DNA of 63,502 nucleotides from an uncultured Treponemataceae bacterium (lineage in GTDB: Bacteria > Spirochaetota > Spirochaetia > Treponematales > UBA12059). The position numbers and the translations under genes are program-made. Below the pieces are notes generated by a model, which was not told the DNA's origin, did no database searches, and saw nothing but the letters and a program-made list of their open reading frames with translations. Location of the stretch: assembly GCA_964630305.1 (NCBI GenBank), contig CAZVTR010000006.1, positions 1-63,502 of the forward strand, given 5' to 3'. Positions 3,009 through 25,560 of this stretch are shown here, piece after piece (position 1 is the first letter of the stretch; each line of letters begins with the position of its first letter).

Positions 3009-3096
3009 AATACATGACAGTTAAACTTACTATATCCATTTTGGAATAACAGTGTTTGAGACAAAAACACAATCCGCCCGTGTTAAGGAGAAAATT

Positions 3097-3762: not shown

Positions 3763-3773
3763 CTAGCAATAAA

Positions 3774-3808
3774 AAAAGCAGTATGCTTGAGAACATCATA
3801 CTGCTTTT
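3774..3808. terminator. Bidirectional intrinsic terminator between the CAP gene and the purine operon
   Basis: Perfect 12-bp stem AAAAGCAGTATG (3774-3785) / CATACTGCTTTT (3797-3808) with A/T tracts on both sides. A second, weaker hairpin lies at 3824-3856. Confidence 0.8.
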
Positions 3809-3881: not shown

Positions 3882-5072
3882 TTATTCAATTTCCCGTTTA
3901 TGATTGCGCTCGATGAGAGCTTTTAGTGTTTTTACCGGATCTTTCCGTTTTCCAAGAAGAATCATTGCTGCAATAATGTATGGTTTGAATCCCGCTTCGC
4001 GATAAGTGTCGTTGCGGTAGCGGTCAAATACGCTTGCGGCAACTTCACCCGCTTTACAGGAAACATCTGTGATATCGGCGGGGAGGCAGTGCATGTAAAG
4101 AGCTTTACCGTTTTTTGTCAGCTTCATTTTTTCTTCGGTGCATTCCCAATCGATGAATTTTGCATTGTTAGCAAGACACTGTTTTTCAAGTTCCTTTAAT
4201 CCTGCTTGATCTCCAGCATGGAGCAGCGGCACACGTTTGAGCATTACGTCATACGGTGCCCAGCTCTTGGGGTACACGATATCGGCATCTTTAAACGCTT
4301 CTTCCATGCTGTTCGAGTGAACAAATTTTCCTCCGCTTTCCTGAGCCTGTTTTTTTGCTAGTTCTACTACTTCTGGAATGAGATTGTAGCCTTCGGGATG
4401 TGCAAGGTGAACTTCCATGCCAAAACGGGTTGCAAGGCCAATAATGCCCTGCGGAACAGAGAGCGGTTTTCCGTAAGAGGGTGAGTATGCCCAGGTCATT
4501 GCAATTTTTTTGCCTTTGAGTTTATCGAGACCGCCAAAATACTCAGCGAGGTGCAATAAGTCAGCCATTGATTGTGTCGGATGATCAATATCACTCTGAA
4601 GGTTAACAATAGTGGGGCGGGATGGAAGTACAGCATCCTTTACCGCTTCATCTAAAGCTTGTGCAACTTCACGCTGGTACCGGTCGCCTTCACCGAGATA
4701 CATATCATCACGGATACCAATTGCCTCAGAAAGGAAACTTATCATAACCGCTGTTTCACGGACAGTTTCACCATGCGCAATTTGGCTCTTGCCTTCATCG
4801 AGATCTTGTACATAAAGACCAAGCAGATCGCAGGCGCTCGAAAAAGAAAACCTGGTTCGAGTCGAATTATCCCGAAAATTCGAAACAGCGATGCCAGAAT
4901 GCCAGATGCGCGGGCTCATGTTTGCTTTGCGCATTTCCTGGAGAATGCGTGCAACAAGAAATGTTGCTTCTATTTCATCCCTTGTTTTTTCCCATGTTAA
5001 CAGAAAATCCTTGTTGTACATGGCAATTTTTTTTGTCGACAGCTTGTCGAGTAAATCATTGATAACGCTCAT
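3882..5072 (-). CDS. ygeW: Knotted carbamoyltransferase YgeW
   Basis: 'FRDNSTRTRFSF', 'HPTQSMAD', 'WAYSPSYGKPLSVPQG', 'MHCLPADI'; 396 aa. Confidence 0.95.
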   Translation of the reverse strand: MSVINDLLDKLSTKKIAMYNKDFLLTWEKTRDEIEATFLVARILQEMRKANMSPRIWHSGIAVSNFRDNSTRTRFSFSSACDLLGLYVQDLDEGKSQIAHGETVRETAVMISFLSEAIGIRDDMYLGEGDRYQREVAQALDEAVKDAVLPSRPTIVNLQSDIDHPTQSMADLLHLAEYFGGLDKLKGKKIAMTWAYSPSYGKPLSVPQGIIGLATRFGMEVHLAHPEGYNLIPEVVELAKKQAQESGGKFVHSNSMEEAFKDADIVYPKSWAPYDVMLKRVPLLHAGDQAGLKELEKQCLANNAKFIDWECTEEKMKLTKNGKALYMHCLPADITDVSCKAGEVAASVFDRYRNDTYREAGFKPYIIAAMILLGKRKDPVKTLKALIERNHKREIE

Positions 5073-5111
5073 GGTTCCTCCTCTGTTACAATAAGCTATG
5101 TTTAAACAGTT

Positions 5112-8003
5112 CTATAATACAGCTTTGTGCGGTGTTTGCACTGTTCCGAGCAGTTTTAAAATACGCTCAGGTGTGAATGGCCACTCCCTGCACCAGATAC
5201 CAAGCGCATCATGCAATGCAATTGCAATTGCTGGGGCTGATCCATTTACCGATATTTCGGAAACCGATTTTCCTCCAAAGGGGCCTATCTCATCATCAAC
5301 AGGCACAAATTCCACATGGAAATCTTCTGGCACTTCATAGATGGATGGAACTTTGTAGTCAAGAAAATTTGGATTGATGAGTACCCCCTGTTTATCAAAC
5401 AGCAGTTCTTCATAGAGCGAGTGTCCTATTGCCTTTAATGCGGCGCCATAGACCTGCCCCATTGCAAGGTCAGGATTGATTGGTGTCCCGCAGTCTTGAT
5501 ATGCATGGTAGCGGAGTATTCTAACCTCGCCAGTGTCTGGATTTGCTTCTAAATCTACAAAATGCGCTGCATAGGGGAAAGCTGCATGATCGGTTTTAAA
5601 GCTGCCAAAACCGACGAGCTCTGCATGTCCTTCGCCTTGAACCGAAATATGAGCAAGCTTTGCAAGCGTTATGGAGCCTGTTTTGCCCTGTATAGTTCCA
5701 GGGTAGATGAGTTTGAGCTGTGAGACAGGTTCATTTAAAATAATACTTGCAGCTGCGAGGCATTTTGTTTTGAGATCTTCTGCTGCTTTAAGTGCTGCGT
5801 TGCCAGAAAAATATGTGCCTGAACTTGCATAGGCACCTTTATCAAAAGGAGTGATATCAGTATCACCTGAAACGACACTGATATGCTCGAGGTCGACTGC
5901 AAGGGTTTCTGCAACAAGTTTAGCGGTAACGGTATCAAGACCTGTACCAAGATCTGCACCGCCAGACAAGAGGAGCAGTGAACCATCGGAAAGCAGTCGG
6001 ACTTCTGCATTGGCCGCATCGAGCCCCGGTAAGCCGGAGCCTTGCTGTATAATCACAGCACCGCGTCCTCGTCTCCAGCCGGGTGTAGGTGCAGGAGGAG
6101 TCGGATTATCCCAATTAAACGCTTTGCGGCCGCGGCTGAGCATTTCGCCAAGTCCGCATTCTCCGAGCGTTACCGGAGCACCGGGGCGCCCTTCTCCGAG
6201 ACTGCGCAAAATTTCGATGCGGGTTCCGGAGCGCACTCTGTTTTTTTCAATGAGTTCAAGCTGATCAATGCCGAGTATTTCAGCAAGTTCTGCTAGTGCT
6301 GTCTGAACCGCAAAGGAACCTTTAGGAGCACCATAGCCCTGATATGCTCCCGCAGGTGGGAGATTAGTGTACCAGCTGTTTACTTCAAAGCGCATGTTCT
6401 CACAGATAATGAGCGGCAGGCTTTTACTGACTGCATTCATAGGAACGGTGAGACAGTGCTGTCCATACGCACCGGTATCCGCATCGAGTTTCATATACAC
6501 CGCAGTGAGTGTTCCGTCTTTTTTGGCTCCCAGTTTCATGGTAATTTCCATGCCGTGTCGTGTACGGCTTGAACGGAACTCTTGTTTACGGGAATAGCGG
6601 AAAAAAACAGGGAGTCCTGTTGTCCACGCTAAGTACCCTGCAATATCTTCAACAACGATGTCCTGTTTGGCACCAAACCCGCCGCCAACTCGTTCTTTGA
6701 TAATGCGAACTTTATGTTCAGGTAGACCAATTACGCGTGCGACAATGCGTCTGACATGCCAGGGGACTTGAGTCGATGCATGGATAATAAGCCGACCTTT
6801 TTCTGGTTTAGCTAATACAACATGCGGTTCCATTGGGGTACTCTGAACACGGTTCCCAATGTACGTGCGTTCAATAACGACATCGGCTTCGCTAAAACCT
6901 TTTTCAATGTCACCGATACCATCACTTGCGCTGGCTGCAAGGTTTTGGTGTGGATCTGCATGGAGTGTGAATTGGTACATAATTGGTTCTTCGCGAGAAT
7001 CACCTTCTGTGGAAATGCCTTCTGGTTTTGTACCGTCAGCATAGGATACGGAACCATGATGCACGATTGGTGCACCGGCTTTTTTTGCTTCATGTATAGA
7101 GAGCACGGGAGGCAATAGCTCATACTCAACACTAATCGCATCTACGGCAGCCTCTGCCTGCTCATGTGTTTTGGCCAGTACAGCAGCTACTCTGTCTCCG
7201 ACATAGCGAACCTTGCGGGAAAACATGAGCTGATCATATGGACTTGGTTCAGGGTACCCCTGTCCGGCAGTGGTATAGGTGTGCTGCGGACAGTTTTCAT
7301 GGGTAAGAATTGTCACCACACCAGGCATTGCGAGCGCCTTACTGGTATCGATTTTTTTTATATATGCGTGCGCATGAGGGCTTTCGAGCAGCACTACATG
7401 GTAAGCATCGGCGTCAACAAAATCCTCCACATAGAGGCGCTGTCCTGTTGCCATCATGAGGGAATCGACTTTAGCGCGATTTTTTCCGATATGACGCAGT
7501 TCTGGTTTAAACTCCGGGTAAAGTTTTTCATGATATGCTGGATCATGCAATCGTTTTACAGCGAGGCGGACTGCATTAAAGAATTGTTCGTAACCCGTAC
7601 AGCGGCAGAATGTCCCGGAGAGGGCATCTTTAATTGCTTCTCTGTCGGGATTATGATTGCGCTGAAGTAAATTAAAAATAGCAAGTGTGACTGCTGGAGT
7701 GCAATAGCCGCACTGTACGCAAGCACTATCAATGAGTGCTTTTTGAATTATTCGTATTGTTTCATTTGTTCGATAAAAATCTACAGTAATAAGTTCCGCA
7801 TCTGCTATTTGACCGGTGAGAATCTGGCATGAGTTTACCTGTCGTCCATTAAGAATTACAGAACATAGTCCGCAGACGCCTTCGCCGTCACAGCCATTGC
7901 GAACTGATACAATACCATGGCTGCGCAAGGTTTCAAGGAGCGGTTTGCCGGGATCGATGTCCCACTGTACTGGTGTACCGTTGAGGGTGAATGAAATCAT
8001 CAT
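5112..8003 (-). CDS. xdhD: XdhD-like molybdenum hydroxylase, fused 2x[2Fe-2S] and Mo-cofactor-binding subunit
   Basis: 'GCDGEGVCGLC', 'QCGYCTP', 'CRCTGY', 'GGGFGAKQD', 'GAYQGYGAPKG', 'GKSVSEISVNG'; 963 aa, the XdhD architecture. Confidence 0.88.
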   Translation of the reverse strand: MMISFTLNGTPVQWDIDPGKPLLETLRSHGIVSVRNGCDGEGVCGLCSVILNGRQVNSCQILTGQIADAELITVDFYRTNETIRIIQKALIDSACVQCGYCTPAVTLAIFNLLQRNHNPDREAIKDALSGTFCRCTGYEQFFNAVRLAVKRLHDPAYHEKLYPEFKPELRHIGKNRAKVDSLMMATGQRLYVEDFVDADAYHVVLLESPHAHAYIKKIDTSKALAMPGVVTILTHENCPQHTYTTAGQGYPEPSPYDQLMFSRKVRYVGDRVAAVLAKTHEQAEAAVDAISVEYELLPPVLSIHEAKKAGAPIVHHGSVSYADGTKPEGISTEGDSREEPIMYQFTLHADPHQNLAASASDGIGDIEKGFSEADVVIERTYIGNRVQSTPMEPHVVLAKPEKGRLIIHASTQVPWHVRRIVARVIGLPEHKVRIIKERVGGGFGAKQDIVVEDIAGYLAWTTGLPVFFRYSRKQEFRSSRTRHGMEITMKLGAKKDGTLTAVYMKLDADTGAYGQHCLTVPMNAVSKSLPLIICENMRFEVNSWYTNLPPAGAYQGYGAPKGSFAVQTALAELAEILGIDQLELIEKNRVRSGTRIEILRSLGEGRPGAPVTLGECGLGEMLSRGRKAFNWDNPTPPAPTPGWRRGRGAVIIQQGSGLPGLDAANAEVRLLSDGSLLLLSGGADLGTGLDTVTAKLVAETLAVDLEHISVVSGDTDITPFDKGAYASSGTYFSGNAALKAAEDLKTKCLAAASIILNEPVSQLKLIYPGTIQGKTGSITLAKLAHISVQGEGHAELVGFGSFKTDHAAFPYAAHFVDLEANPDTGEVRILRYHAYQDCGTPINPDLAMGQVYGAALKAIGHSLYEELLFDKQGVLINPNFLDYKVPSIYEVPEDFHVEFVPVDDEIGPFGGKSVSEISVNGSAPAIAIALHDALGIWCREWPFTPERILKLLGTVQTPHKAVL

Positions 8004-8803
8004 GGCTGAACCTCCGCATTGAGGAGTGCTTCTGCTAGTTTTTCAGCGCCAATGTATTCTTTGTATGAAGCACTGCCGCGCTGATCGGTGATAGCATGAA
8101 GCAGGGGTTGTATGCGTGTCCGAATTGTGTGTTTATCGGAAGGCAGCTGGATACCTTCAAAGAGAGCAGCAATATCGGTGCGGAGCTCTGCATGTTTGGA
8201 AAAGCCTCCGAGAACAATGCGTAGCTCTGTGAAGCTGTTGTTATGTGCGAGCTTACATGCAACGGCTGCTGTAATTGAGGAGAGATCACAGGATGTGCGC
8301 CGGAAAAAGGCAAAGTTCATAGCCAGCCCTCTGGGGTTACTGCAATGTACTTCAAGGATAATTCCCTGTGGGTTTTGCAGCCAAGTTTGGAGGGGAACAA
8401 GTGTCGTGCTCGTTGTTACTGTAAGGTTTGCATCGAGGAGGAGCAATATGGGAATGAGACTTGCACAGGATTTATTTGCCCCTATATTACCGCCAATTGT
8501 TGCTCTGTTTCTGATATTGCGGTTACTCATGGTCGCAAGCGCTTTTTTAAATATTGGAGGAACATTCGATTCCAGGAGTTCTTGAAATGTCATACCGCTT
8601 CCAATGATGATTTCAGATTCATTCACACTGATAAACTTAGGAACAATGCGGCTGATATCCATAGCTGTTTCCAGGGTTAGCGATGCGGGGTGTGCTAAAA
8701 GATAAGTTCCGCCTGCAAGCATAGGAACCTGTGGATTCTGAGTATTATAGTGAGCAGCTTCATCTATTGAAGCTGGCTGTATCAAGTTTTTTACTGTTAC
8801 CAT
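8000..8803 (-). CDS. ygfM: FAD-binding subunit of a Mo hydroxylase (YgfM-like)
   Basis: 'LAGGTYL', 'IRNRATIGGNI', 'ASLIPILLLLDA'; 4-bp overlap with xdhD. Confidence 0.8.
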   Translation of the reverse strand: MVTVKNLIQPASIDEAAHYNTQNPQVPMLAGGTYLLAHPASLTLETAMDISRIVPKFISVNESEIIIGSGMTFQELLESNVPPIFKKALATMSNRNIRNRATIGGNIGANKSCASLIPILLLLDANLTVTTSTTLVPLQTWLQNPQGIILEVHCSNPRGLAMNFAFFRRTSCDLSSITAAVACKLAHNNSFTELRIVLGGFSKHAELRTDIAALFEGIQLPSDKHTIRTRIQPLLHAITDQRGSASYKEYIGAEKLAEALLNAEVQP

Positions 8804-10197
8804 GGCAGATGCACTCCGGCTTTAGATAAGAGCTTGCGTGCTGCTTTGTTAGCAGCTTCTGCAAGTGCTTCTTCATCGATATTAACAAGTTTTCCCCGTG
8901 ATACAACAATGGAGCCATTAACTATAAGATAATCTACTCCATGATTATAACCGGAAAACAGCAATGCTGCAGGCGGATCAGACAGCGCTCCTGCATATTC
9001 AAGTTTGCTGAGATCAAACAGTGCAATATCTGCTAATGAACCTTCTTCCAGTGTGCCCGCATGTGGGAAACCGAGTATGCGAGCTCCGCCTTCTGTAGCA
9101 ATGCCAAAGATTTCTCGTGCTGTACTGCCTGTTGCGCCATATCGTACGCGCTGGAGCAAAAGAGCTTGCCGCGCTTCACCAAGCATATCTGAGCTGTCAT
9201 TAGATGCAGAGCCATCAACAGCGAGTCCGACGGGTATACCTTTATCGAGCATTTCGCGCACTCTGCAGATACCAGATGCTAACCGCATATTAGAGGCAGG
9301 GCAGTGTGCAATGCCGGTTTGATAGCGTGCTAATGTATCAAGTTCTTCATCGGTAAAGTGAATACCATGAGCGTACCACACATCCGGTCCAATAAATTCA
9401 CAATCCTCCATTACTTTGAGCGGGCGTCTACCGTAAACTCTCATGCAATATTCATCTTCGTCTGCTGTTTCTGCTAGATGTGTGTGAAGCCGAGCTCCAT
9501 ACTTGCGTGCAAGCCTCGCAGATTCTTTCATGAGCTTCTCTGATACCGAAAACGGAGAACAGGGAGCAAGCGCAAGTTTTCTCATTGCATCAGGCGCAGG
9601 ATCGTGGTAGCGCTTAATAGCTTCTTCGGATTGAATGAGTATGGTCTCTTCATCCTGGACCACAGTGTCCGGCGGCAGCCCTCCGTCTTTTTTTGAGCGA
9701 GACATAGAGCCGCGGGTTGGTGCAAAGCGTATTCCTATTTCAGACGCAGCTTTAAACTGGAGACCGGGCAGATCGTCTTTGAAATCAACAGGATAAAGAT
9801 AGTGGTGATCGGTAGAAAGTGTACAGCCTGTTTTGGCAAGCTCAGCAAGGGCTAATTTGCTCGACAGGTATACAGCCTCCTCATCAATACCTTTCCAGAT
9901 TTCATAGAGATACACGAGCCAGGTAAAGAGCTTTGCATTTTGTACAGCAGGAACATTTCGTGTAAGCGTCTGGTAAAAATGATGGTGAGTGTTTACCATA
10001 CCTGGCATGACAAGATGTTTTGATGCATCGATTGTAGTTGTTCCTGCTGGTACTGTAATGGCTGGAGCTATCTTTGCAATTCTGTTTCCATCTATGAATA
10101 TGTCGACACCATGTAAATCGGTTTCAAGCGATCCTGCTTGCTTGCCGCTTCCGTAGTGAGACTTGAGTACCCAGAAGCAGTTTTTAAGGAGTATCAC
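8797..10197 (-). CDS. 8-oxoguanine deaminase family amidohydrolase
   Basis: 'NTHHHFYQTLTR', 'APCSPFSVS', 'HTHLAET', 'HCPASNMRLASG', 'AVDGSASND'; GTG start. Confidence 0.85.
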   Translation of the reverse strand: MILLKNCFWVLKSHYGSGKQAGSLETDLHGVDIFIDGNRIAKIAPAITVPAGTTTIDASKHLVMPGMVNTHHHFYQTLTRNVPAVQNAKLFTWLVYLYEIWKGIDEEAVYLSSKLALAELAKTGCTLSTDHHYLYPVDFKDDLPGLQFKAASEIGIRFAPTRGSMSRSKKDGGLPPDTVVQDEETILIQSEEAIKRYHDPAPDAMRKLALAPCSPFSVSEKLMKESARLARKYGARLHTHLAETADEDEYCMRVYGRRPLKVMEDCEFIGPDVWYAHGIHFTDEELDTLARYQTGIAHCPASNMRLASGICRVREMLDKGIPVGLAVDGSASNDSSDMLGEARQALLLQRVRYGATGSTAREIFGIATEGGARILGFPHAGTLEEGSLADIALFDLSKLEYAGALSDPPAALLFSGYNHGVDYLIVNGSIVVSRGKLVNIDEEALAEAANKAARKLLSKAGVHLPW

Positions 10198-11651
10198 CGC
10201 AAAACCTCCGCATTAAAATCTTCAATGAGTTTATCAAGCTGAGCAGTTTGTTTGTGCAAGTTACCCCAGTATGATCGATAATCATCCCACTGAGCTCTCA
10301 GTTCATCGAGTGATTTTCCAAGCTGTTCAATCCAGGTAAAGTATTTAAGCTGATGTATTCGCCGTCTATCTGCATGGGTAAGATCGGCTACATAATCTAC
10401 AGAGAGCCGCTGGAGCATATCAAAATCTTTATCAGCCTGGCGCTGCGTGTAGGGGCCGCGTTCCTGTGTGAGCTCTTGCAGTCTTGAACCATAGAGCTGG
10501 AGTGAATCGGTAAATACAGTGAGCACGATATCGTGTTCTCCAAGTTCGTAATATTTGGCCGCTTTAATTGCAGCAACAAGGTTGCCAATGCCTGAAATAC
10601 CAATGAGATCGAGATTGTCTACAACAGCTTGAGGGATACCGTTTTCTTTGAGCACTTCCCGACCAGCTTTTTCATTAAACAACCGGAGGAGCCGCATTGG
10701 AATTTCATCGTCAACAGCTACTGCAACATCGGTATCACGGAGATTGTGTATCCAGGGAATATGTTTATCACCAATGCCTTCAATGCGGTGACCGCCAAAA
10801 CCATTTTCAAGAATAGTGGGGCATTGCAGCGCTTCACCAACGCCTACGCGGGTACCCGCAAAGTGTTCTTTGAGGTAGCTTCCTGCGCCGAGCGTTCCGG
10901 CAGAGCCGGAGCTGAACACGGAAAGCGCCAGGTAGTCATTGCCTCGGTTAAGTTTATTGTATACTTCTTCGAGCGCTGGTCCTGTCACTGCATAGTGCCA
11001 GAGGTGGTTGGGAAGCTGATCAAATTGGTTAAAGATGACTGCGTCTGGCCGGGTTTTTTCCAGTTCGACGCATTTGTCAAAAATTTCTTTAACATTGGAT
11101 TCACAGCCTGGAGTTGCTATGACTTCTTCTGCCATAGTTTTAAGCCATTCAAAACGCTCTCGTGACATTTCTGCAGGTAAAATAGCAATTGATGGGCAGG
11201 AAAGGAGCCGGCTTATATAGGCTCCGCCGCGGCAGTAATTGCCAGTAGAAGGCCATACCGCTTTTTTAGAGGTCGGATCAAAACGGCCGGTAATTAGTTC
11301 CGGAACCAGGCAGGAATAAGCGGCTCCTACTTTATGCGCACCAGTTGGAAACCACTTGCCAACTATTGCTGCTATGCGTGCTTTTGTCCCTGTGAGTGTT
11401 CTGGGAAGTTCAAAATAATTAACTGGTCCAAAAGCGCCGCCTTGTTCTTTGGGTTCATTGTGCCAGGTTACACGAAAAAGATTTCTGCTGTGTACATCCC
11501 AAAGGCCGATAGATTTGAGTTCCTGTACAATTGATGCAGGAATCAATGTGGGATCTTTCATCTGCGCATAGGTGGGAAGCAGAATACCCTTTTCTTTACA
11601 GCGCTCTATGTTTTTGCGCCGCTGGCTTTCGTTAATTCGTAAATCGATCAT
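10194..11651 (-). CDS. Uncharacterised fold-type II PLP-dependent enzyme (cysteine synthase/beta family) with long C-terminal extension
   Basis: PLP lysine region 'FPTGAHKVGA', 'PSTGNYCRG', 'SSGSAGTLG', 'HRIEGIGDKHIPW'; 485 aa. Confidence 0.8.
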   Translation of the reverse strand: MIDLRINESQRRKNIERCKEKGILLPTYAQMKDPTLIPASIVQELKSIGLWDVHSRNLFRVTWHNEPKEQGGAFGPVNYFELPRTLTGTKARIAAIVGKWFPTGAHKVGAAYSCLVPELITGRFDPTSKKAVWPSTGNYCRGGAYISRLLSCPSIAILPAEMSRERFEWLKTMAEEVIATPGCESNVKEIFDKCVELEKTRPDAVIFNQFDQLPNHLWHYAVTGPALEEVYNKLNRGNDYLALSVFSSGSAGTLGAGSYLKEHFAGTRVGVGEALQCPTILENGFGGHRIEGIGDKHIPWIHNLRDTDVAVAVDDEIPMRLLRLFNEKAGREVLKENGIPQAVVDNLDLIGISGIGNLVAAIKAAKYYELGEHDIVLTVFTDSLQLYGSRLQELTQERGPYTQRQADKDFDMLQRLSVDYVADLTHADRRRIHQLKYFTWIEQLGKSLDELRAQWDDYRSYWGNLHKQTAQLDKLIEDFNAEVLR

Positions 11652-11692
11652 CGTGGTCTCCTTATGTTTACAATAATTGTATCTATCTAAAG

Positions 11693-12928: not shown

Positions 12929-12932
12929 GTGG

Positions 12933-15436: not shown

Positions 15437-18400
15437 CGGTTTTGCTCCTTGTTGTACAGCTCGGTTCGAGCAAGCAAGTATCGGTGGTTTGTGAAAAGCT
15501 CTCGCGCAGCAAACAAAAAGGGCGCTGATTGAGCGTCACCTGTTGTGTTCCATGCTTCAAATGTCAGTACAGCGGGTTTGGCTTTTTGTTCGGTTCGCAG
15601 AATGAGATTGGGTTGTTCCGCTTTTCCAAAAAATGCAAAACCGGTGTTGGAACTTGCTTCAAGTTCCTGTTTAGTGTCAAAGAGCGTGATTTTGTCTTTG
15701 CAAGGTTCGCCGTTGTAGGGACAAAAAAAGGAACAGTTGCCGCATTCATTGCAGAGTGCATCGATGTGGAGAATTTGAATAGGCTGCTTAAATGGACCCC
15801 CCGGTATCAAGGTTACAGGCAATGCAAAGTTAGCACGGTTGGGACAAGTTTCTACACAACGTAAACACATAACATCACAGGAAAGGCAGCGCTGAGCTTC
15901 ATTGGTTATAAAATTTTTATCACGAGGGTCGGTTTTAGTTTGATAAGCGCCTCGTTTCATGCGGATTAGTTCGAGTTCTGGATTGGTATGCGGTGTTTCT
16001 GTTAGGCTGTCAACCGGATCTATGCCGGCAATGCGCAGTATTGCAAAGGCTGCTTTTTTGCCGTCGGCTTCGGCAGCAATAATGCTTGAGGGGCCGCGTC
16101 GTAAATCTCCAATGACAAATACTTCTTCGTTTGAAAGACTCATCATGGTTTCTGGATTGCAGAGCGGGTATCCTCGTTCATGGGTTACCTTAAAATGATC
16201 AAGCAGCTGCGTATCAGCTGTTTCTCCGATTGCAGAAATAATGAGGTCACAGGGTTTGAGCTCGGTAATATCAGATGGATACGGGACACGTCTGCCGTCA
16301 TCGCCAGGTTTTCCGAGCAGCATTTTCCGAATTACTATATAGGGGCGTTCTTTTTTGATAACGGCTTCAGGGAGAGAGAGTTCAAGCAGCGTAACACCAT
16401 CGGCAAATGCTGCCTCAAGTTCTTCTTTGTCGGCAGGCATTTCTTCTCTCGTCCTTCGGTATGCAATGTATACATCAGGGCGCCAGGGAAGCCGCGCGGC
16501 TATGCGCGCCGCATCCATTGCGGTATTCCCGCCGCCTATGATAATTATTGTATTTGCGTTTTGATATTGCTCCATAAAGCTTCGGGTTTTTTCTCGTTCT
16601 AGATGGAGTGTTTTTAATAGATCCAAGGCAGTAATTACCGGAATAGTGCAATTTTTTATGTCGATTGGTTTAGATACAGTTGCTCCGCTGGCAAGCACAA
16701 TAGAGGTATAGCCTTGCTCCTTAAGCTCACTGTATGTTGGGTTTGCATTTTTAATAAAAACAGCACCTAATGCCTGAATACGTTCGATATCTTTTTGAAG
16801 CGACTCTTTTGTAATACGGAATTTAGGTATCACGGAAGCAGGTATACCGCCGATGCTGGATGTTTGTTCAAAGACGGTAACAGGATAGCCATTGAGCGCA
16901 AGGTAATGAGCGCATGCAAGTCCGGCAGGTCCTGATCCAAGTATTGCTGTTTTACCCTTATCGAGTACGGGTACTTTTGTTTTTGGCTTGCTGTGAGCTG
17001 TCAGAGCACAGCGATGTTTGATGTCGCGTATTTCAATTGGACCCTCATAGTCATTGCGCGAACACGAGTACATGCACTGGTGATCACAGAGGATACCCGT
17101 AATGTTCGGCAAAGGGTTATCTTTATAGATGATTTCGAGACCTATATCGGCCTTATGTTCTGCAAGTGCGCGAATATACTGAGGTGCTTTTTGCATTGCG
17201 GGGCATGCTTCGATACAGGGTGCTGCAAAACAATCGGATAGCGGCAACTCTTTGTTAATGTACACGGTACCTGTTTTATATGAGCGCTGATAGTATGGTT
17301 TGTTAAAAACACTGTCTGCGAGTAAATGGATGTGTTCAGAATCTGGTTGGGATGCATGCTCTTCTAAAAGTCCTTCTGTGGCTGTTTCTGCAATAGTGAG
17401 GAGCCGCTGGTAACCACCGGGTTTGAGGATATCAGTTACAACGGTGAGCGGCCCAAGTCCAGCTTCGATACATTGCTTAGCATTATATGAAGCTATTCCT
17501 CCGCAAAACGAAAGCGCACTTAGATTAGGAAGCGAATCGATAAGTTCTGATGCTAGCCGTATTGTAATAGGGAAGAGCGCACGTCCAGACATATATCGTT
17601 CTGCACCGGGAAGTCTGTTTGTATTGTTGATGTTAGCCAGTGTATTAGAGAGCTTAACACCAAACCAAGTTCCTTCATTGTTGGCAAGCTGTGACAGATT
17701 TTCAATGAGCTTAATTGCATCTTCAAATTGGAGATCATGTTCAAAGGTTTCGCGTTTTAATTCAATGTTTGTCCAGCCCAGCTTATTGAGGATGCTTCGC
17801 ACTTTAAGGAAACCCAGCAAAGTTGGATTAAGCTTGATGTATGTAGGTAATTTTTTCTCTTTAATGAGATAGCTTCCGATCTGCTCAATTTCATGAGAGG
17901 GACAGCCATGCATTGTAGAGAGCGTTATCGAATGAATTGGCGAATCTGAAAGGTTTGCTATGTATGCCTGTGCCTTTTCCCTAACGTGTTCACCAAAAAT
18001 GGCCTGACAACTGGAACTGGTTAAAGCATCAAGTGTTTCAGCAATAATAGTTTTCATTATTGGGAGTTTCCAGGGATTACGCATACCTTCAATAAAGGAG
18101 TCTACTTTTTGTGATTTTATGCCTTCCAGCGTATAACCGGCTGAAATATTAAAAATAAAATCTTGAGCAGGAATATCCATCAGTATTGAGAGGGTTTTTA
18201 TAGCAATCCATCCTCGAAGATACTCTTCCATGGCTTCTTCGACGAGGAGTTCTGTTGACCACTCGACATTGTGTCCTTCATCGAGCGCATCGATGCATGG
18301 TTTATCGAGTTCGAGACGATCATTTATTTGTACTGTTTTAAGCTCGAATACGCGAGCGCTGCAGAGCCAGCCCGCAATGAGATTAGGGGCAATCTGTGTG

Positions 18401-18597
18401 TGCGGCCCAGCTGCGAGTCCCGCAGGAATCGAAATGCGGGTGTTATAAACGGTAAATCCGGGAGATTTTTGCACCAGTACCTTCATTGCATCGATGCAAA
18501 ACGCAGGTATTTCAAAAATTGTTTTTTTTGCCCGATATTCACCGAACATATGTTCAAAGAGTGCTCTCATTGACGTTGTTTTCATAATTTTGCTCAT
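15433..18597 (-). CDS. ygfK: YgfK flavin/Fe-S oxidoreductase ('putative selenate reductase')
   Basis: 'AAGPHTQIAPN', 'LKTVQINDRL', 'GVKLSNTL', 'GSGPAGLA', 'GGGNTAMDAAR', C-terminal ferredoxin Cys motifs. Start set to ATG 18597 (ATGA overlap with the upstream stop). Confidence 0.92.
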   Translation of the reverse strand: MSKIMKTTSMRALFEHMFGEYRAKKTIFEIPAFCIDAMKVLVQKSPGFTVYNTRISIPAGLAAGPHTQIAPNLIAGWLCSARVFELKTVQINDRLELDKPCIDALDEGHNVEWSTELLVEEAMEEYLRGWIAIKTLSILMDIPAQDFIFNISAGYTLEGIKSQKVDSFIEGMRNPWKLPIMKTIIAETLDALTSSSCQAIFGEHVREKAQAYIANLSDSPIHSITLSTMHGCPSHEIEQIGSYLIKEKKLPTYIKLNPTLLGFLKVRSILNKLGWTNIELKRETFEHDLQFEDAIKLIENLSQLANNEGTWFGVKLSNTLANINNTNRLPGAERYMSGRALFPITIRLASELIDSLPNLSALSFCGGIASYNAKQCIEAGLGPLTVVTDILKPGGYQRLLTIAETATEGLLEEHASQPDSEHIHLLADSVFNKPYYQRSYKTGTVYINKELPLSDCFAAPCIEACPAMQKAPQYIRALAEHKADIGLEIIYKDNPLPNITGILCDHQCMYSCSRNDYEGPIEIRDIKHRCALTAHSKPKTKVPVLDKGKTAILGSGPAGLACAHYLALNGYPVTVFEQTSSIGGIPASVIPKFRITKESLQKDIERIQALGAVFIKNANPTYSELKEQGYTSIVLASGATVSKPIDIKNCTIPVITALDLLKTLHLEREKTRSFMEQYQNANTIIIIGGGNTAMDAARIAARLPWRPDVYIAYRRTREEMPADKEELEAAFADGVTLLELSLPEAVIKKERPYIVIRKMLLGKPGDDGRRVPYPSDITELKPCDLIISAIGETADTQLLDHFKVTHERGYPLCNPETMMSLSNEEVFVIGDLRRGPSSIIAAEADGKKAAFAILRIAGIDPVDSLTETPHTNPELELIRMKRGAYQTKTDPRDKNFITNEAQRCLSCDVMCLRCVETCPNRANFALPVTLIPGGPFKQPIQILHIDALCNECGNCSFFCPYNGEPCKDKITLFDTKQELEASSNTGFAFFGKAEQPNLILRTEQKAKPAVLTFEAWNTTGDAQSAPFLFAARELFTNHRYLLARTELYNKEQNR

Positions 18598-20036: not shown

Positions 20037-22354
20037 TATTGTTCCCCTTTCGGAGTGTGTGTGGTAACTGTAGCCGGGCTCACAACTAAATTGTCTAGAT
20101 ATCGCAGAGCTTTTTCGGGAGTCATTGGAAGATCATAGAAGAGTGTCCCTGTTGGGTTAGCGGCATGGAGCGCATCGAGTACAGCAAAATAACCGGCGAT
20201 GCCATACATGAATGGCGGTTCTCCTATGGCCTTCGAATTAGCGACTGTGTGCGGATTTGGTGCATCGATGATTTCAACAATCATCTCTGGCATAAAGTGA
20301 GCGTCAGGAACTTTATATGTAGAGAGCGTGTTTGCCAAAAGCCGGCCATCAGCGCTAAAGCAGAGCTCTTCTAAAGCTGACCAGCCAAGACCCTGTGCAA
20401 ATGCTCCTTCTATCTGCCCAATATCGATATCAGGTGCGATAGAGTTAGCAAGGTCATGAACAATCCATGCTGTATCAAAATGGTATGTGCCTTTGAGCAT
20501 ATCGACTGTTGCAGTAACTATTGCACAGCCGTATACATGATACGCAAATGGTCTGCCGTATTCTTTTTCCATGTCATAAAATAAATCTGGGGTGGCATAA
20601 AAAGCATGTGCGCTTAAATCGATTCTGCTTTCATATGCTTTTTTCACAATATCTTCAAATGAATAGCCTGTATCCTGTCCGGCTTTATCGGATGGTTTAA
20701 CATATACGAGCCTGCAATTAGAAAAATCGAGCTCTGTTTTAATGGTGTGAAGTATCTCTGCTGCAAGCAACAAAAGCCGCTCTTTTATTTGTTCTGCTGC
20801 GAGGCATGCAGCAGCGCCGTTAATATCGGTACCCGTGCTCGCAGCAGTGGGCTGTGTATTAGCAACGGTAGATGTTCTTGTAGTTTCAATTTTAACACGA
20901 GAATCCGGTATGCCTAAACAGCGCGCGGTGAGCAGCGCTATCTTGCGGTTTACTCCCTGTCCCATTTCAACAGCGCCGGTGCTTACGCTTACAGAACCGT
21001 CATGGTATACATGTACCAGTGCACCGCCTTGATTCATCATTAGTTTAGTAAAACTGATACCAAAGCAGATGGGTATACCTGCTGCGCCTTTTTTATAACG
21101 GCGGTTTTTGCTGTTAAACTCGTCAATTGCAGAACGGAGTTCACGCCAGTTTGCTAGCTCCATGCAGCGGGTTACTGTTGCTTCTGCACGTGCATCTTCA
21201 AGCCGCATACCGTAGTGCGTTCGATCATTAGTATGCACAAGATTTTTTAGCCTGAGTTCCATAGGATCCATGTTGAGTGCGTTTGCTGCTGCTTCTAGTG
21301 CGCTTTCTATGACAAAAAATCCCTGCGGACCGCCAAAGCCGCGGAAAGCGGTAAAGGGTACCAGATTTGTTCTGCACATAATGCCAGTTACTTTGACATT
21401 CGGGATGTGATACGCACCGCACGCATGAAACAATGTTCGCGGAATGATTGCTGGAGAAAGATCGGTAGCAGCGCCTGAATTCTGGTAATATACAGCTTCA
21501 AAAGCTCGTATGGTTCCGTCTTTAGAAAGTCCTATAGTAAAATCGCTTGAGTAGGGGTGACGCTTCCCGGTCGCCTGTAAGTCATCGCGCCGGTTAAGAT
21601 AGAGCTTTACGGGCCGTTTTGTTACATAGGCACCGAGCGCTGCAAGTGCTGCCCAGGCATTAGCTTGTTCCTCTTTGCCGCCAAAAGCACCGCCGAGGCG
21701 CCTTGTTTCGATTTCTATTTTATGCATCGGCAGACCGAGAATACGCGCAACAATCTGCTGAACGAGCGAAGGAGATTGTGTGCCTGCAATGATCCTCATG
21801 CCTCCCGAATCTTCCGGAACAGCTATGGCTCCTTGAGTTTCCAGGTAAACATGTTCCTGACCGCCCGAATCTACTCTTCCCGTTATAACAATATCGCAAT
21901 CTGCCAACGCCTGCTGTGTGTCGCCGCATTGCTGAATGCGGGGTTTGAGAATAACCTTACCTTGTGCATATGCCTCACGCGGATCGGTTATTGCGGGAAG
22001 CTCTTTTATATTAGTTATGGTAATTTTACTTAATGCTTTTCGCGCAAGGCTTTTTGTTTCGGCAAGAACAAGCGCCAGTACCTCTCCCTGATAGTGCCAT
22101 TCGTGTTCTGCAAGCAGAGGTTCATCATCCATGACCATGCCAAGTTCATTTTTCCCCGGTACATCCTGTGCGGTAAGTATCCGGACGGAAGGATGCACAG
22201 CGAGTGCTTCTGAGACATCAAGACCTGAATATGTTCCGTGAGCTGTTGGGGATAGAAGCGGCACTGCATGAAGCAGTGTTGATGCTTCCGGAAGATCATC
22301 AATATAGAGTGTAGTGCCAGTTACATGCGGAATACTGTCGGTATTGTAGTTCAT
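20036..22354 (-). CDS. xdhB: Xanthine dehydrogenase molybdopterin-binding subunit (Rhodobacter/Pseudomonas type)
   Basis: 'GGQEHVYLE', 'RRLGGAFGGKE', 'GKRHPY', 'AFRGFGGPQG', 'VEMGQG', 'GQIEGAFAQG', 'SKAIGEPPF'. Confidence 0.93.
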   Translation of the reverse strand: MNYNTDSIPHVTGTTLYIDDLPEASTLLHAVPLLSPTAHGTYSGLDVSEALAVHPSVRILTAQDVPGKNELGMVMDDEPLLAEHEWHYQGEVLALVLAETKSLARKALSKITITNIKELPAITDPREAYAQGKVILKPRIQQCGDTQQALADCDIVITGRVDSGGQEHVYLETQGAIAVPEDSGGMRIIAGTQSPSLVQQIVARILGLPMHKIEIETRRLGGAFGGKEEQANAWAALAALGAYVTKRPVKLYLNRRDDLQATGKRHPYSSDFTIGLSKDGTIRAFEAVYYQNSGAATDLSPAIIPRTLFHACGAYHIPNVKVTGIMCRTNLVPFTAFRGFGGPQGFFVIESALEAAANALNMDPMELRLKNLVHTNDRTHYGMRLEDARAEATVTRCMELANWRELRSAIDEFNSKNRRYKKGAAGIPICFGISFTKLMMNQGGALVHVYHDGSVSVSTGAVEMGQGVNRKIALLTARCLGIPDSRVKIETTRTSTVANTQPTAASTGTDINGAAACLAAEQIKERLLLLAAEILHTIKTELDFSNCRLVYVKPSDKAGQDTGYSFEDIVKKAYESRIDLSAHAFYATPDLFYDMEKEYGRPFAYHVYGCAIVTATVDMLKGTYHFDTAWIVHDLANSIAPDIDIGQIEGAFAQGLGWSALEELCFSADGRLLANTLSTYKVPDAHFMPEMIVEIIDAPNPHTVANSKAIGEPPFMYGIAGYFAVLDALHAANPTGTLFYDLPMTPEKALRYLDNLVVSPATVTTHTPKGEQ

Positions 22355-23754
22355 GGCAGCAATTCCTCCTCAAGTTCAGGCCATAACCGTAGAGCATGCG
22401 CAAGCACCAATCTGAAAACCAAACGTTTACGGTATTCCGAGGTACCTCGTACATCGCTAATTGGCGTCGCACTAGTTTGTGCTTTCTGAGCTAGATGCTG
22501 TACGATCTCAGAAGAAGATTTCTTTCCTATTATAAGAGCAGATGCTTCTTCTAGTAAAAGCGGTACTGGTGCTACTCCTCCAAACGAAAGTCTGGCTTGT
22601 TGTATTGTGCCATCATCAGCTTCTTCTACTGCGAATGCTGAGTTTACCGTGGCAATATCGAGGTGTTCTCGTTTAGATACTTTTTCAAAGCTGATTCTTA
22701 GTGGCTTTGCTGGGATCACAATAGCATCAATTTGCTCATCTGTATTTATTGCTAGTTTTTTATAACTGATAAAAGCTTTCTGGAGCGGCTGAGATCGTTT
22801 TGTGCCGCGACTAGTTTTTATGCTGAGCTCAGCACCCAGAGCAAGAAGCATAACTGTCATATCGGCAATGGGTGAAGCATTGGCAATATTGCCAGCAAGC
22901 GTAGCACGGTTGCGGATAGGGATGCTTGCAATGTATTGTTCATACTGTTCTATGCCCGGGAAAGTTGTTCGTATATGTTCTGAATCAAAGAAGTCGCGAA
23001 TAGTGACAGCAGAACCAATGATGAGCTTTCCATGTTCATGACGTATTTGATGAGCGGGCGGTTCGAGATCGGTGTAGCGCGGAACAAGTTCCTGGTCAGG
23101 ATCCGGGTTTTGCACAAAAAAGTCAGTACCGCCGCCCAGTGTTCTTGTTGTGGGAATAGTTTCCCGTATCGGTTCGGGAATTGAATGCATGGTGTCTGCA
23201 AGAGCGCGGGGAAGTATGCCTTCCTGTGCAAGAAAAGCCAGCCTGGTATGGAAATCGGCGGGCACTTCAGGAAAGGACTGCACCAGTTTAGCTGCAGCTC
23301 TGCGGATACTGCCGTAACCTGTGCACCGGCAGAGGTTCCCGTCGATTGCTGTGATTGCATGGCGGTAATCGATGGGGCCGCCTTCAATAAACAGTGCGGT
23401 GAGTGCTACAACGAAGCCAGGACTGCAAAAACCGCACTGGCTTGCTCCTGTTTCTAAAAATGCCTGCATTACCGGAGTAAGCCCAGCCTCGGCAATGCCT
23501 TCAATGGTGATAATATGTTTACCATCGAGATCGGAAAGTCCAAGCGTGCAAGATGTGACAGCATGATACACGGGTTTACCATCAATGGTTTCTCCCAGTA
23601 TAACCATGCATGCGCCACAATCGCCTTCGCGGCAGCCCTCTTTAGTTCCTTTGAGCTGGGCAGTATTGCGTATCCAATCAAGAGCAGGCTGTTCCCTATC
23701 GAGCGTTATCGTATGCTCTTGTGTGTTCAATCTAAACCGTATTGTTCTGTGCAT
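22351..23754 (-). CDS. xdhA: Xanthine dehydrogenase small subunit (2x[2Fe-2S] + FAD)
   Basis: 'GTKEGCREGDCGAC', 'SQCGFCSPG', 'GNLCRCTGY', 'GGGTD', 'IRNRATLAGNIANASPIAD', 'KVSKREHLDI'. Confidence 0.92.
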   Translation of the reverse strand: MHRTIRFRLNTQEHTITLDREQPALDWIRNTAQLKGTKEGCREGDCGACMVILGETIDGKPVYHAVTSCTLGLSDLDGKHIITIEGIAEAGLTPVMQAFLETGASQCGFCSPGFVVALTALFIEGGPIDYRHAITAIDGNLCRCTGYGSIRRAAAKLVQSFPEVPADFHTRLAFLAQEGILPRALADTMHSIPEPIRETIPTTRTLGGGTDFFVQNPDPDQELVPRYTDLEPPAHQIRHEHGKLIIGSAVTIRDFFDSEHIRTTFPGIEQYEQYIASIPIRNRATLAGNIANASPIADMTVMLLALGAELSIKTSRGTKRSQPLQKAFISYKKLAINTDEQIDAIVIPAKPLRISFEKVSKREHLDIATVNSAFAVEEADDGTIQQARLSFGGVAPVPLLLEEASALIIGKKSSSEIVQHLAQKAQTSATPISDVRGTSEYRKRLVFRLVLAHALRLWPELEEELLP

Positions 23755-23757
23755 ACG

Positions 23758-25497
23758 TTATTCCTCTACAAAAAGATCAACAAGTTTAAACGACTCAACA
23801 TCAACGAGACCTTGATCGGTGAGCTTGAGTGATGGTATTACCGGCAGAGCCATAAACGATAACAGCATAAGCGGGGATACTTTTTGAATTCCCTCTTGTT
23901 CAAAGTATGCAGAAAATCTTTCAAGCGATGCTAATACTTCCGATATGGATTTATCGCTCATAAGCCCAGCAATAGGCAGAGGAAGTTCAGCAATTATGGT
24001 ATCCCGATCGGTGATAACATAGCCGCCTTTCATTGCATTTAATCGTTTTACTGCTTTAAAAATGGAAGTGTCATCGGCTCCTGCAACGATAATGTTATGA
24101 GAATCATGGCTTACGGTTGAACCGATTGCTCCGTGCTTTAAACCAAGCCCGCGGATAAAGCCCTTGCCGATTGATCCAGTGCCTCCGTGTCGTTCTATAA
24201 CAAAAAGCTTTAACAAATCGCGAGCTGGATCTGCAACACACAAACCATTGTCTACCGCAGGTTCCAGTATCGATTTTCCCGTCACGATTGAGCCGGGCAC
24301 AGCTTCGATGACGCGGATTTTTTTACCAATATATGGAATGGCAAACGCCGATTCATCGAGCCACTTAACATTGACAGAGTCTCTAACGCGGGGGAGCGAG
24401 CCAGCAGTGCTAAATAATTCTGTCCATGCTGATGTTTTTTCCCCGTGTTCTGCAATGATTGTTCCTTGCTTAATAACTTTTTTTACGGAAAATGGCTCAT
24501 TGTGGTCAAAAACAATAAAGTTTGCTTTGTAGCCGGGAGCAATAGAGCCGCAGCGCCGCAGTCCAAAGTAGAGCGAAGGATTATGCGCCGCCATTCGCAG
24601 TGCATCTATAAGCGGGATTCCCTTTTCCTGCAGAATTCGGACAGCTGCATCAATGTGGCCCTCTTTGACAATATCATGCGGGTGTCTGTCATCGGTACAG
24701 AGCATCATGCGGTGTACGGTGTCATGGTTCATTGCAGGAATAAGGTGCTCAAGATCACGAGCAGATGATCCAAACCTAGCCATTATCCACATACCTTTTG
24801 ATAACTTTTCCAGCGCTTCTTCTGGCGTTGTGGCCTCGTGGTCACTCCTGATGCCAGAGATGACATACGCTGAAAGTTCTTTGCCAGATAGACCCGGTGA
24901 ATGTCCGTCAATTACTTTGCCATTTTCCCAAAATAGAGAAAGCTTATCACGGAGCTGCAGATCTCCTGAGAGAATTCCTGGATAGTTCATCACTTCGCCC
25001 AAGCCAAGTATGCGAGGCTCCCGTGTGAACGGCGCAAGATCCGATGCATAGAGCGATGCTCCTGCTGTATCAAACGATGTCGCGGGGACACAGCTGGGTG
25101 CCATGAAAAAAATCTCAAGAGGTATCCCCTCAGACGCTTTGAGCATCCAGTGTATGCCGTCATAACCGAGCACATTAGCGATTTCATGCGGATCAGCAAT
25201 AACTGTTAGTGTTCCATGCGGCGTAACCAGGTTGCAAAATTCCCGAGGATGCACCAGGCTTGATTCTATATGAACATGGGCATCGACAAGGCCCGGGCTT
25301 ACACATAAGCCGCCGAGATCAATACATTGTTTTACAGGTAAATTTTCACTGATGCCTACAATATAACCTTTGTATACGGTGATAGAAGCAGGCCCACGTA
25401 TCGTATTAGTAAAAAAATCGGTATAGAAGCAGTTAGTATAGCAAATATCAGAAGATATTTTCCCCAGAGCTGCTTCAATTATTTCATAAGGAAGCAT
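23758..25497 (-). CDS. ade: Adenine deaminase
   Basis: 'DAHVHIESS', 'DPHEIANV', 'LGEVMNYPG', 'DGHSPG', 'SDHEA', 'CTDDRHP', 'SHDSHN', 'LSFMALPVIPSLKLTD'. Confidence 0.95.
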   Translation of the reverse strand: MLPYEIIEAALGKISSDICYTNCFYTDFFTNTIRGPASITVYKGYIVGISENLPVKQCIDLGGLCVSPGLVDAHVHIESSLVHPREFCNLVTPHGTLTVIADPHEIANVLGYDGIHWMLKASEGIPLEIFFMAPSCVPATSFDTAGASLYASDLAPFTREPRILGLGEVMNYPGILSGDLQLRDKLSLFWENGKVIDGHSPGLSGKELSAYVISGIRSDHEATTPEEALEKLSKGMWIMARFGSSARDLEHLIPAMNHDTVHRMMLCTDDRHPHDIVKEGHIDAAVRILQEKGIPLIDALRMAAHNPSLYFGLRRCGSIAPGYKANFIVFDHNEPFSVKKVIKQGTIIAEHGEKTSAWTELFSTAGSLPRVRDSVNVKWLDESAFAIPYIGKKIRVIEAVPGSIVTGKSILEPAVDNGLCVADPARDLLKLFVIERHGGTGSIGKGFIRGLGLKHGAIGSTVSHDSHNIIVAGADDTSIFKAVKRLNAMKGGYVITDRDTIIAELPLPIAGLMSDKSISEVLASLERFSAYFEQEGIQKVSPLMLLSFMALPVIPSLKLTDQGLVDVESFKLVDLFVEE

Positions 25498-25532: not shown

Positions 25533-25560
25533 ATTGTAACACATATTCTATGGCTGTCAA
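25533..25560 (-). promoter_or_regulatory. Sigma-70 promoter of the purine operon
   Basis: On the minus strand: TTGACA (25560-25555), 16-nt spacer ending in TGT (extended -10), TACAAT (25538-25533); about 35 nt upstream of the ade ATG with RBS GAGG. Confidence 0.75.

Follow-up and report, generated by a model that had tools for sequence, protein, structure and literature searches.

A predicted thirteen-gene operon for anaerobic purine catabolism by a variant reductive urate pathway in an uncultured Treponemataceae bacterium

The window analyzed here is a whole stretch of 63,502 nucleotides (63.5 kb) of contig CAZVTR010000006.1 (assembly GCA_964630305.1), from an uncultured Treponemataceae bacterium. 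From position 25497 down to 3882, its minus strand carries thirteen consecutive co-directional genes, termed g1 to g13 in the order of transcription, as revealed by the list of open reading frames (ORFs) and the analysis of their junctions. Many of the encoded proteins belong to families of the reductive urate (2,8-dioxopurine) pathway, the chemistry of which two groups established in 2025 with Enterobacteria and Clostridia of the gut (PMC12507026; bioRxiv 10.1101/2025.04.24.650524; commentary in PMC12990295).

Organization of the operon

The genes and their predicted signals are listed below, with bit scores given against the curated cut-offs of the respective family models.

25533..25560, minus strand: predicted sigma-70-like promoter, TTGACA-16-TGtTACAAT, 36 nt upstream of the ade start codon
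23758..25497, minus strand: g1, adenine deaminase (Ade), 579 aa; TIGR01178, 575 bits vs 472.5
22351..23754, minus strand: g2, predicted xanthine dehydrogenase small subunit with fused 2x[2Fe-2S] and FAD parts, Rhodobacter XdhA type, 467 aa
20036..22354, minus strand: g3, predicted molybdopterin subunit of xanthine dehydrogenase (XdhB type), 772 aa
18594..20036, minus strand: g4, allantoinase-like cyclic amidohydrolase, 480 aa, proposed ureidomethyl-hydantoin hydrolase
15433..18597, minus strand: g5, YgfK, Fe-S flavoprotein (2,8-dioxopurine reductase), 1054 aa; TIGR03315, 968 vs 835
14138..15436, minus strand: g6, SsnA, ring-opening amidohydrolase, 432 aa; NF005540, 514 vs 444; TIGR03314, 508 vs 455.5
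12933..14141, minus strand: g7, YgeY, M20 ureido-group hydrolase, 402 aa; NF009555, 498 vs 321
11693..12928, minus strand: g8, threonine-synthase-like enzyme (TSl) dependent on pyridoxal phosphate (PLP), 411 aa, with an N-terminal CxxC...CxxC zinc ribbon
10194..11651, minus strand: g9, PLP enzyme like cysteine synthase and cystathionine beta-synthase (CSl), 485 aa, of an uncharacterised, very conserved family
8797..10197, minus strand: g10, amidohydrolase of the 8-oxoguanine-deaminase family (cog0402), 466 aa; NF006055, 596 vs 532
8000..8803, minus strand: g11, putative YgfM-like FAD subunit of XdhD, 267 aa; Pfam FAD_binding_5 and CO_deh_flav_C
5112..8003, minus strand: g12, XdhD-type Mo/Fe-S subunit (urate <-> 2,8-dioxopurine), 963 aa; TIGR03313, 1122.8 vs 1101.9
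3882..5072, minus strand: g13, YgeW, knotted carbamoyltransferase, 396 aa; NF005538, 681 vs 453
3771..3808, minus strand: intrinsic terminator downstream of ygeW, with a 12-bp stem, an 11-nt loop and U7

The twelve junctions comprise eight overlaps of 1 to 7 nt, mostly of the ATGA, GTGA or TAATG type, and two gaps of 3 and 4 nt, in addition to the two largest gaps of 41 and 39 nt. ATGA overlaps join g2/g3, g4/g5, g5/g6, g6/g7 and g11/g12 (4 nt in the last case), whereas g3/g4 share a TAATG (1 nt), g9/g10 a GTGA and g10/g11 an overlap of 7 nt. The gaps separate g1/g2 (3 nt), g7/g8 (4 nt), g8/g9 (41 nt) and g12/g13 (39 nt). These distances were computed with corrected starts for two genes. The ygfK gene is taken to start at ATG 18597, which forms the ATGA with the g4 stop codon, rather than at TTG 18648 of the ORF list, because the TIGR03315 match begins only at residue 19 of the longer ORF. 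Similarly, the start of g8 was moved from 12991 to ATG 12928, which is preceded by a GAGGAG ribosome-binding site, because the homologues open with the same MxW.Y.CP.C zinc-ribbon motif.

The promoter-like site matches the consensus at 11 of 12 positions and has an extended -10 TG. At the other end, the terminator hairpin folds with -14.8 kcal/mol (z = -4.5; none of 200 shuffles folds as well) and is common to ygeW and a convergent gene with a CAP domain (3052..3762). With its 11-nt loop, longer than the scan allows, it escaped the automatic terminator search. An Rfam scan of the whole window, including the leader, gave no match to a purine, molybdenum-cofactor (Moco) or 8-oxoguanine riboswitch, and no tRNA gene was found in the window. 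The layout put forward in the initial annotation, thirteen co-directional genes with gaps of at most 41 bp, one promoter upstream of ade and one terminator after ygeW, is borne out on all these points, and the operon is confirmed at the sequence level, its thirteen genes being predicted to form one transcription unit.

An Mbeg1-like gene (PF11187; 25597-26706, minus strand) lies 99 bp upstream of ade, as it also does in the close relatives L085 to L087. It was left out of the operon because the predicted promoter sits between this gene and ade. The G+C content of the operon region (4001-26000) is 44-49%, compared to 36-42% in the immediate flanks (1-4000 and 26001-32000). This contrast is no clear evidence of horizontal transfer, as other parts of the window also reach 48%. 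Along the window as a whole, the cumulative GC skew shows a monotonic rise.

Predicted funnel and core enzymes of the reductive urate pathway

Families were assigned by NCBIfam models with curated bit-score cut-offs and by Pfam domains, together with direct comparison to the cluster of E. coli K-12. This assignment, which the initial annotation had suggested as a check on its family calls, places seven proteins above the curated cut-offs (g1, g5, g6, g7, g10, g12 and g13).

At the head of the operon, Ade is followed by the two subunits of a putative xanthine dehydrogenase (XDH). The small subunit g2 scores 313 bits against TIGR02963, under the cut-off of 467, and possesses the Pfam domains Fer2, Fer2_2, FAD_binding_5 and CO_deh_flav_C. 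The molybdopterin subunit g3 scores 763 bits against TIGR02965, under the cut-off of 849.5, and matches bovine xanthine oxidoreductase (XOR) at 3e-152. Residues E228, R306 and E712 of g3 correspond to the catalytic Glu802, Arg880 and Glu1261 of XOR (bovine numbering). Though scoring somewhat under the equivalog cut-offs, g2 and g3 are assigned to the Rhodobacter-type XdhAB and predicted to form a canonical XDH. A further candidate for the funnel is g10, a close homologue of characterised 8-oxoguanine deaminases with a predicted substrate, which matches PDB 3HPA at 1.6e-125 and the 8-oxoguanine deaminase 7WW2 at 2.4e-116.

The core enzymes are close to those of E. coli, with identities of 40% over 1005 aa for YgfK, 47.5% for SsnA, 48% for YgeY and 65% for YgeW; ygfK and ssnA adjoin through their ATGA overlap. 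The XdhD-type subunit g12 is 48.7% identical to E. coli XdhD and, like it, carries Gln and Asn at the positions of XOR Glu802 and Arg880. It also retains, as E604, the Glu606 of E. coli XdhD that was proposed by Li et al. to orient urate for 6-dehydroxylation (PMC12507026). Judged by these residues, the two molybdenum enzymes are distinguishable, g3 bearing the XOR signature and g12 the XdhD signature. The putative FAD subunit g11 overlaps the start of xdhD by 4 nt; it scores 79 bits against TIGR03312 (cut-off 241.5) and shares 27% identity with E. coli YgfM.

Putative substitutes for HyuA and YgeX

No HyuA orthologue was found in the window. The cyclic amidohydrolase g4 shares 27% identity with E. 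coli HyuA and scores 191 bits against the D-hydantoinase model TIGR02033 (cut-off 393), compared to 334.8 bits against the allantoinase model TIGR03178, just under the cut-off of 357.85, and a match of 4e-63 to E. coli allantoinase (3E74). In g4, the residues that hold the binuclear metal site of cyclic amidohydrolases are all retained (H58/H60, K168, H203, H264 and D332). Thus g4 is closest to allantoinases such as AllB of the ureide pathway and shares their metal ligands, but differs from AllB in scoring under the allantoinase cut-off and in being embedded between xdhB and ygfK, with no allantoin-pathway genes nearby; in the spirochaete relatives, its gene invariably occupies this place. Since ureidomethyl-hydantoin is allantoin plus one methylene, an allantoinase-derived enzyme would be a chemically natural replacement of HyuA, and we infer that g4 takes this role, with ureidomethyl-hydantoin as the likely substrate. 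An oxidative allantoin route, which g4 might suggest, was rejected: the family models revealed no uricase, allantoate gene or other gene of that route among the operon genes, and the place of g4 between xdhB and ygfK is conserved.

YgeX is missing as well. None of the operon genes matches a YgeX model at E <= 1e-5, and tblastn over the whole window gave a best match of 23% over 81 aa (E = 0.001). In its place stand the two PLP enzymes TSl and CSl.

TSl resembles threonine synthase as a fold-type-II PLP enzyme with the conserved lysine (K109), the Asn loop and the phosphate-binding loop, but scores under every threonine-synthase cut-off (top score 177 bits vs 303). The motif NPxR(L/I)EGQKT of four solved threonine synthases reads NPLTIEGKKT in TSl. 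In particular, Arg160 and Ser155 (T. thermophilus numbering), which we take to be the phosphate-binding ligands of that enzyme, are replaced by T208 and A203, leaving TSl without the phosphate-binding Arg and Ser.

CSl is likewise a fold-type-II PLP enzyme, related to O-acetylserine sulfhydrylase (OASS) and cystathionine beta-synthase (CBS). Alignment with E. coli CysK showed that K107, S135-T-G-N138, Q209, the G249-S..G-T253 loop and S353 are kept, so that the PLP lysine, the Asn loop, the glutamine, the phosphate-binding loop and the N1 serine are all conserved. By contrast, CSl is 19-26% identical to solved structures, is longer by about 80 residues at the N terminus and 95 at the C terminus, and scores 77 bits against the cysK model TIGR01139 (cut-off 351). 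No NCBIfam model reaches its cut-off for CSl or for distant full-length relatives (28-57% identity). The family itself is highly conserved, with 153 columns at least 97% conserved in an alignment of 81 sequences, and occurs in at least 592 GTDB species. Among the matches listed, identities between phyla or lineages are 58-81%, covering Spirochaetota, Betaproteobacteria, Chloroflexota, Bipolaricaulota, Halanaerobiales, Atribacterota, Acidobacteriota and others. The AlphaFold2 model of CSl, built from a shallow alignment, has a mean predicted local distance difference test (pLDDT) score of 67.6, with the active-site loops below 50, and its best Foldseek matches are CBS and OASS; no substrate was deduced from this model because of the low pLDDT and the generic nature of the matches. 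Apparent Rosetta-stone fusions among the 50%-identity representatives of the family (with ABC ATPase, HerA, metallo-beta-lactamase and thiolase) follow no consistent pattern and were set aside as likely chimeric gene calls.

The source annotations read "threonine synthase" and "cysteine synthase", and g4 falls just under the allantoinase cut-off. The three might therefore be an ordinary threonine synthase, cysteine synthase and allantoinase interspersed among purine genes, which would leave the route incomplete. We regard such a mosaic as highly improbable, in view of the low scores of TSl and CSl against these models, the missing phosphate-binding Arg of TSl, the long family-specific extensions of CSl and the missing oxidative allantoin genes. 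Moreover, both PLP enzymes differ from threonine and cysteine synthases in their genomic linkage, which is to decarbamoylases and purine genes rather than to threonine or cysteine biosynthesis; the linkage to purine or ureide genes is kept over more than ten phyla.

Several accessory functions are also missing from the window. Carbamate kinase (YqeA), an NCS2 permease, XdhC/YqeB/YqeC and MocA have no match in it even at E <= 10, UacT/XanQ and YgeV are absent from its 63.5 kb, and no purine-specific regulator is visible across it. The operon had been called self-contained in the initial annotation. This description does not stand: as carbamate kinase, permease and maturation genes are missing from the window, the operon is not self-contained and the ATP-yielding step is not local. 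Carbamate kinase, transport, regulation and Moco maturation would have to be encoded elsewhere in the genome.

The remainder of the window holds sugar-uptake, signalling, lipid and housekeeping genes. A GGDEF diguanylate cyclase (26831-27838, minus strand) lies just upstream of the cluster, followed by a sugar-utilisation cluster (28124-36583) unrelated to the purine operon, which comprises an ABC transporter (binding protein and two permeases), two GH13 enzymes, a LacI-family regulator and a fructokinase-like kinase. A response regulator and a PAS/histidine-kinase pair are found at 38828-41933. The left end of the window carries a YgiQ-like radical SAM protein (Radical_SAM_N and DUF3362; 309-2201, plus strand) and the right end the yidC-jag pair (59917-62404, plus strand).

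Proposed pathway and related loci

We propose that the operon is one transcription unit for anaerobic purine catabolism via the reductive urate pathway, a reading to which we assign a probability of roughly three in four, the substrates being deduced from the enzyme families. Ade would convert adenine to hypoxanthine, which XdhAB would oxidize through xanthine to urate, whereas g10 may deaminate 8-oxoguanine or a related 2-amino-oxopurine into the urate pool. XdhD with its YgfM-like FAD subunit would then reduce urate to 2,8-dioxopurine, which YgfK would reduce further and dearomatise. SsnA would open the pyrimidine ring to give ureidomethyl-hydantoin, and g4, standing in for HyuA, would open the hydantoin to 2,3-diureidopropionate. 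One ureido group could be phosphorolysed by YgeW, yielding carbamoyl phosphate and a mono-ureido acid, and the other hydrolysed by YgeY, yielding 2,3-diaminopropionate. Finally, TSl and/or CSl would convert diaminopropionate to pyruvate and NH3, with TSl most likely acting as the ammonia-lyase analogue and CSl, paired with g10, probably having some second role.

The initial annotation had already joined a purine-to-urate funnel (Ade, XDH and the 8-oxoguanine-deaminase family) to the reductive urate route and expected several steps to be carried by different enzyme families. Both proposals agree with the families present in this one operon, where g4, TSl and CSl are found in place of HyuA and YgeX. 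Of the pathway enzymes it had named, XdhD, YgfK, SsnA, YgeY, YgeW and a putative YgfM-like subunit are present, but HyuA and YgeX are not. Its "to pyruvate" end point goes too far: there is no YgeX orthologue, and the end product is an assumption on two uncharacterised PLP enzymes.

For comparison, 86 related loci were collected, 80 via CSl, two via TSl and four via SsnA, and their 10-kb flanks were inspected. YgeX occurs in none of the 86 within these flanks, and carbamate kinase in 12. Every one of the 27 loci with a YgeY-like M20 enzyme also has TSl, as do 19 of the 22 with SsnA. In 28 of its 50 occurrences, TSl lies directly downstream of a decarbamoylase (M20 in 17, carbamoyltransferase in six, CN-hydrolase in five), and in three loci (L089, L094 and L095) it sits next to ssnA-ygeY without CSl. 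We conclude that both PLP enzymes probably act on products of ureido-group removal, and that TSl is a better candidate than CSl for the YgeX step.

The core might stand and the end nevertheless differ, with TSl and/or CSl not being a diaminopropionate ammonia-lyase. In one variant, TSl would bind albizziin (3-ureido-alanine) in its remodelled phosphate pocket and eliminate urea. This fits the exchange of both phosphate ligands for neutral residues, and the ureido side chain of albizziin would have about the length of that of phosphohomoserine. In another variant, CSl would salvage the C3 unit by a beta-replacement that yields serine or cysteine from diaminopropionate or albizziin; CSl keeps every OASS/CBS residue for such a reaction, and its structural matches are synthases of beta-substituted alanines. 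Moreover, L089 and L095 carry ssnA-ygeY-TSl with neither a carbamoyltransferase nor CSl inside 10 kb, and the order in which the two ureido groups are removed was left open in the published work (PMC12990295). However, diaminopropionate is the joint product of the two E. coli enzymes of which YgeW and YgeY are true orthologues, and no elimination of urea is then required. In addition, the window has no urease or urea carboxylase, and urea is not an intermediate of the characterised pathway (PMC12507026). We consider a different end reaction unlikely.

The second PLP enzyme shows a different association. Of the 24 occurrences of a g10-type amidohydrolase, 23 are immediately downstream of CSl, in various operon arrangements (L004 to L083, and L090), for example at 10001-12900 of L022 and 4557-7600 of L078, as well as at 8797-11651 of the window. 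Such a fixed pairing is not expected of a peripheral funnel enzyme. CSl and g10 might accordingly form a separate module outside the disposal of the C3 unit, processing guanine-derived (2-amino or guanidino) analogues of the intermediates; the operon has no guanine deaminase. Alternatively, both molybdenum enzymes might obtain the sulfide or selenide of their terminal ligand from CSl, in keeping with its likeness to OASS/CBS enzymes that produce H2S, Fn1055 among them; in five loci CSl follows DUF364-XdhC-NTPase maturation genes. Known Moco sulfurases, however, are fold-type-I NifS-like enzymes. Two further groups of loci also argue against a separate module, which we judge to be quite improbable. 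In Betaproteobacteria (Rhodocyclaceae, Methyloversatilis and others; L017 to L021), M20, CN_hydrolase, TSl and CSl make up a minimal module (e.g. L021, 6500-11464). It has no molybdenum enzyme, SsnA or YgfK within 10 kb and no further purine genes in the vicinity, and resembles an independent route for an amino acid bearing two carbamoyl groups. In Bipolaricaulota (L040, L048, L073, L045 and L080), CSl comes after two carbamoyltransferases and a carbamate kinase, without M20 or TSl, which suggests a catabolic role; if both ureido groups were phosphorolysed there, the pathway could give two ATP.

The maturation block of the five loci mentioned above (L023, L028, L036, L037 and L038) lies immediately upstream of CSl (e.g. 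L036, 7377-9989) and consists of a 206-aa unknown protein, a DUF364/DUF4213 protein, XdhC and an NTPase_1 protein.

Among spirochaetes, loci of metagenome-assembled genomes (MAGs; L005, L007, L009 and L011) keep the order xdhB-allB-ygfK-ssnA-ygeY-TSl-CSl-deaminase-ygfM-xdhD-ygeW at 34-85% protein identity. Variants also occur: L090 has no ygfM-xdhD inside the operon, and L089 stops after the TSl gene. Exact copies of g9 were found on Logan metagenome contigs with identical gene order, and relatives from activated-sludge and similar metagenomes, with Ade 92% identical, share the order Mbeg1-like, ade, xdhA, xdhB, allB-like, ygfK, ssnA. The arrangement is not due to chance, since it recurs both in assemblies made independently and in spirochaete MAGs that are more remote. 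The nearest named homologue of g9 comes from Gracilinema caldarium (Treponematales, Breznakiellaceae; 86% identity), followed, among the matches listed, by Treponema, Rectinemataceae and Spirochaetaceae MAGs, in line with the spirochaete origin that the initial annotation had proposed.

Several observations weigh against the proposed pathway. XdhAB, the YgfM-like subunit and g4 all score under the curated cut-offs. Two PLP enzymes exceed what a single replacement of YgeX needs, and since the linkage partners of TSl are not those of CSl, another function is probable for one or both. A simple 8-oxoguanine funnel fails to explain the tight CSl-g10 pairing, which points to a coupled function. The selenium-cofactor trait genes (YqeB, YqeC and SelD) are absent from the window, whereas yqeB, yqeC and selD are present in every pathway-carrying strain of a published gut-strain library. 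YgeX, HyuA or carbamate kinase could also lie beyond the 63.5-kb window. Moreover, the sample of related loci is biased towards those containing CSl, and its 10-kb flanks would miss a YgeX placed as in E. coli, 10.5 kb from ssnA.

The closest known system is the E. coli cluster of ygeW-ygeX-ygeY-hyuA-yqeA and ygfK-ssnA-ygfM-xdhD (Li et al. 2025, PMC12507026). Both systems share XdhD with the same active-site signature, a putative YgfM-like subunit, YgfK, SsnA, YgeY and YgeW, in addition to the ygfM-xdhD overlap and the ygfK-ssnA adjacency. They differ in that YgeX gives way here to two PLP enzymes and HyuA to an allantoinase-like enzyme, and in that all the genes share one operon with ade, an XdhAB-type XDH and an 8-oxoguanine-deaminase-family gene. 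The same logic applies to the XDH, DOPDH (XdhAC) and DOPOR of C. sporogenes (Liu et al. 2025, bioRxiv 10.1101/2025.04.24.650524), where hypoxanthine and xanthine enter the urate pool through XDH and another molybdenum hydroxylase reduces urate to 2,8-dioxopurine, followed by reduction, ring openings and decarbamoylations. However, DOPDH is selenium-dependent and lacks a FAD subunit, which is present here, with no selenium-trait gene in the window; the end steps of C. sporogenes also differ, being carried by YgeX and carbamate kinase. Similar to the operon described here, the C. difficile variant (UacX for YgfK, and UacY for YgeW/YqeA) and the F420 variant of Chloroflexota (PMC12507026) have single pathway steps taken over by non-orthologous enzymes in each lineage, but the steps replaced here, the hydantoinase and the PLP lyase, are others.

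The operon thus represents a known pathway with an ordinary core, in which three steps are assigned to uncharacterised substitutes (g4, TSl and CSl) that are widespread in other bacteria. It is less novel in that the pathway and the occurrence of SsnA clusters in Spirochaetota were already reported by Li et al. in 2025 (PMC12507026). A variant with TSl-like or CSl-like enzymes, or a replacement of HyuA or the PLP lyase, is not described in the literature searched. In the neighbourhood survey of Li et al. (Fig. 3g legend), any PF00291 protein near SsnA was scored as "YgeX" and IPR011778 as "HyuA" (PMC12507026), so that TSl and CSl genes would have been merged with true YgeX. We tentatively suggest, as a possibility that is still doubtful, that TSl and CSl, the latter with its fixed amidohydrolase partner, constitute a so far unrecognised end branch by which purines and ureides are catabolised anaerobically, replacing YgeX in hundreds of species of more than ten phyla. 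The chemistry of such a branch may be other than diaminopropionate deamination, for instance the release of urea from albizziin, a salvage of the C3 unit as serine or cysteine, or the handling of guanidino intermediates derived from guanine.

The reductive urate pathway is being pursued for urate-lowering probiotics, and the present operon is a compact version of it, predicted to be a single transcript, from an environmental spirochaete, combining funnel and core. Functions for g4, TSl and CSl would complete the pathway in many anaerobes without YgeX, could help to settle the order and stereochemistry of ureido cleavage, and would correct the annotations "threonine synthase" and "cysteine synthase" that these proteins now carry.

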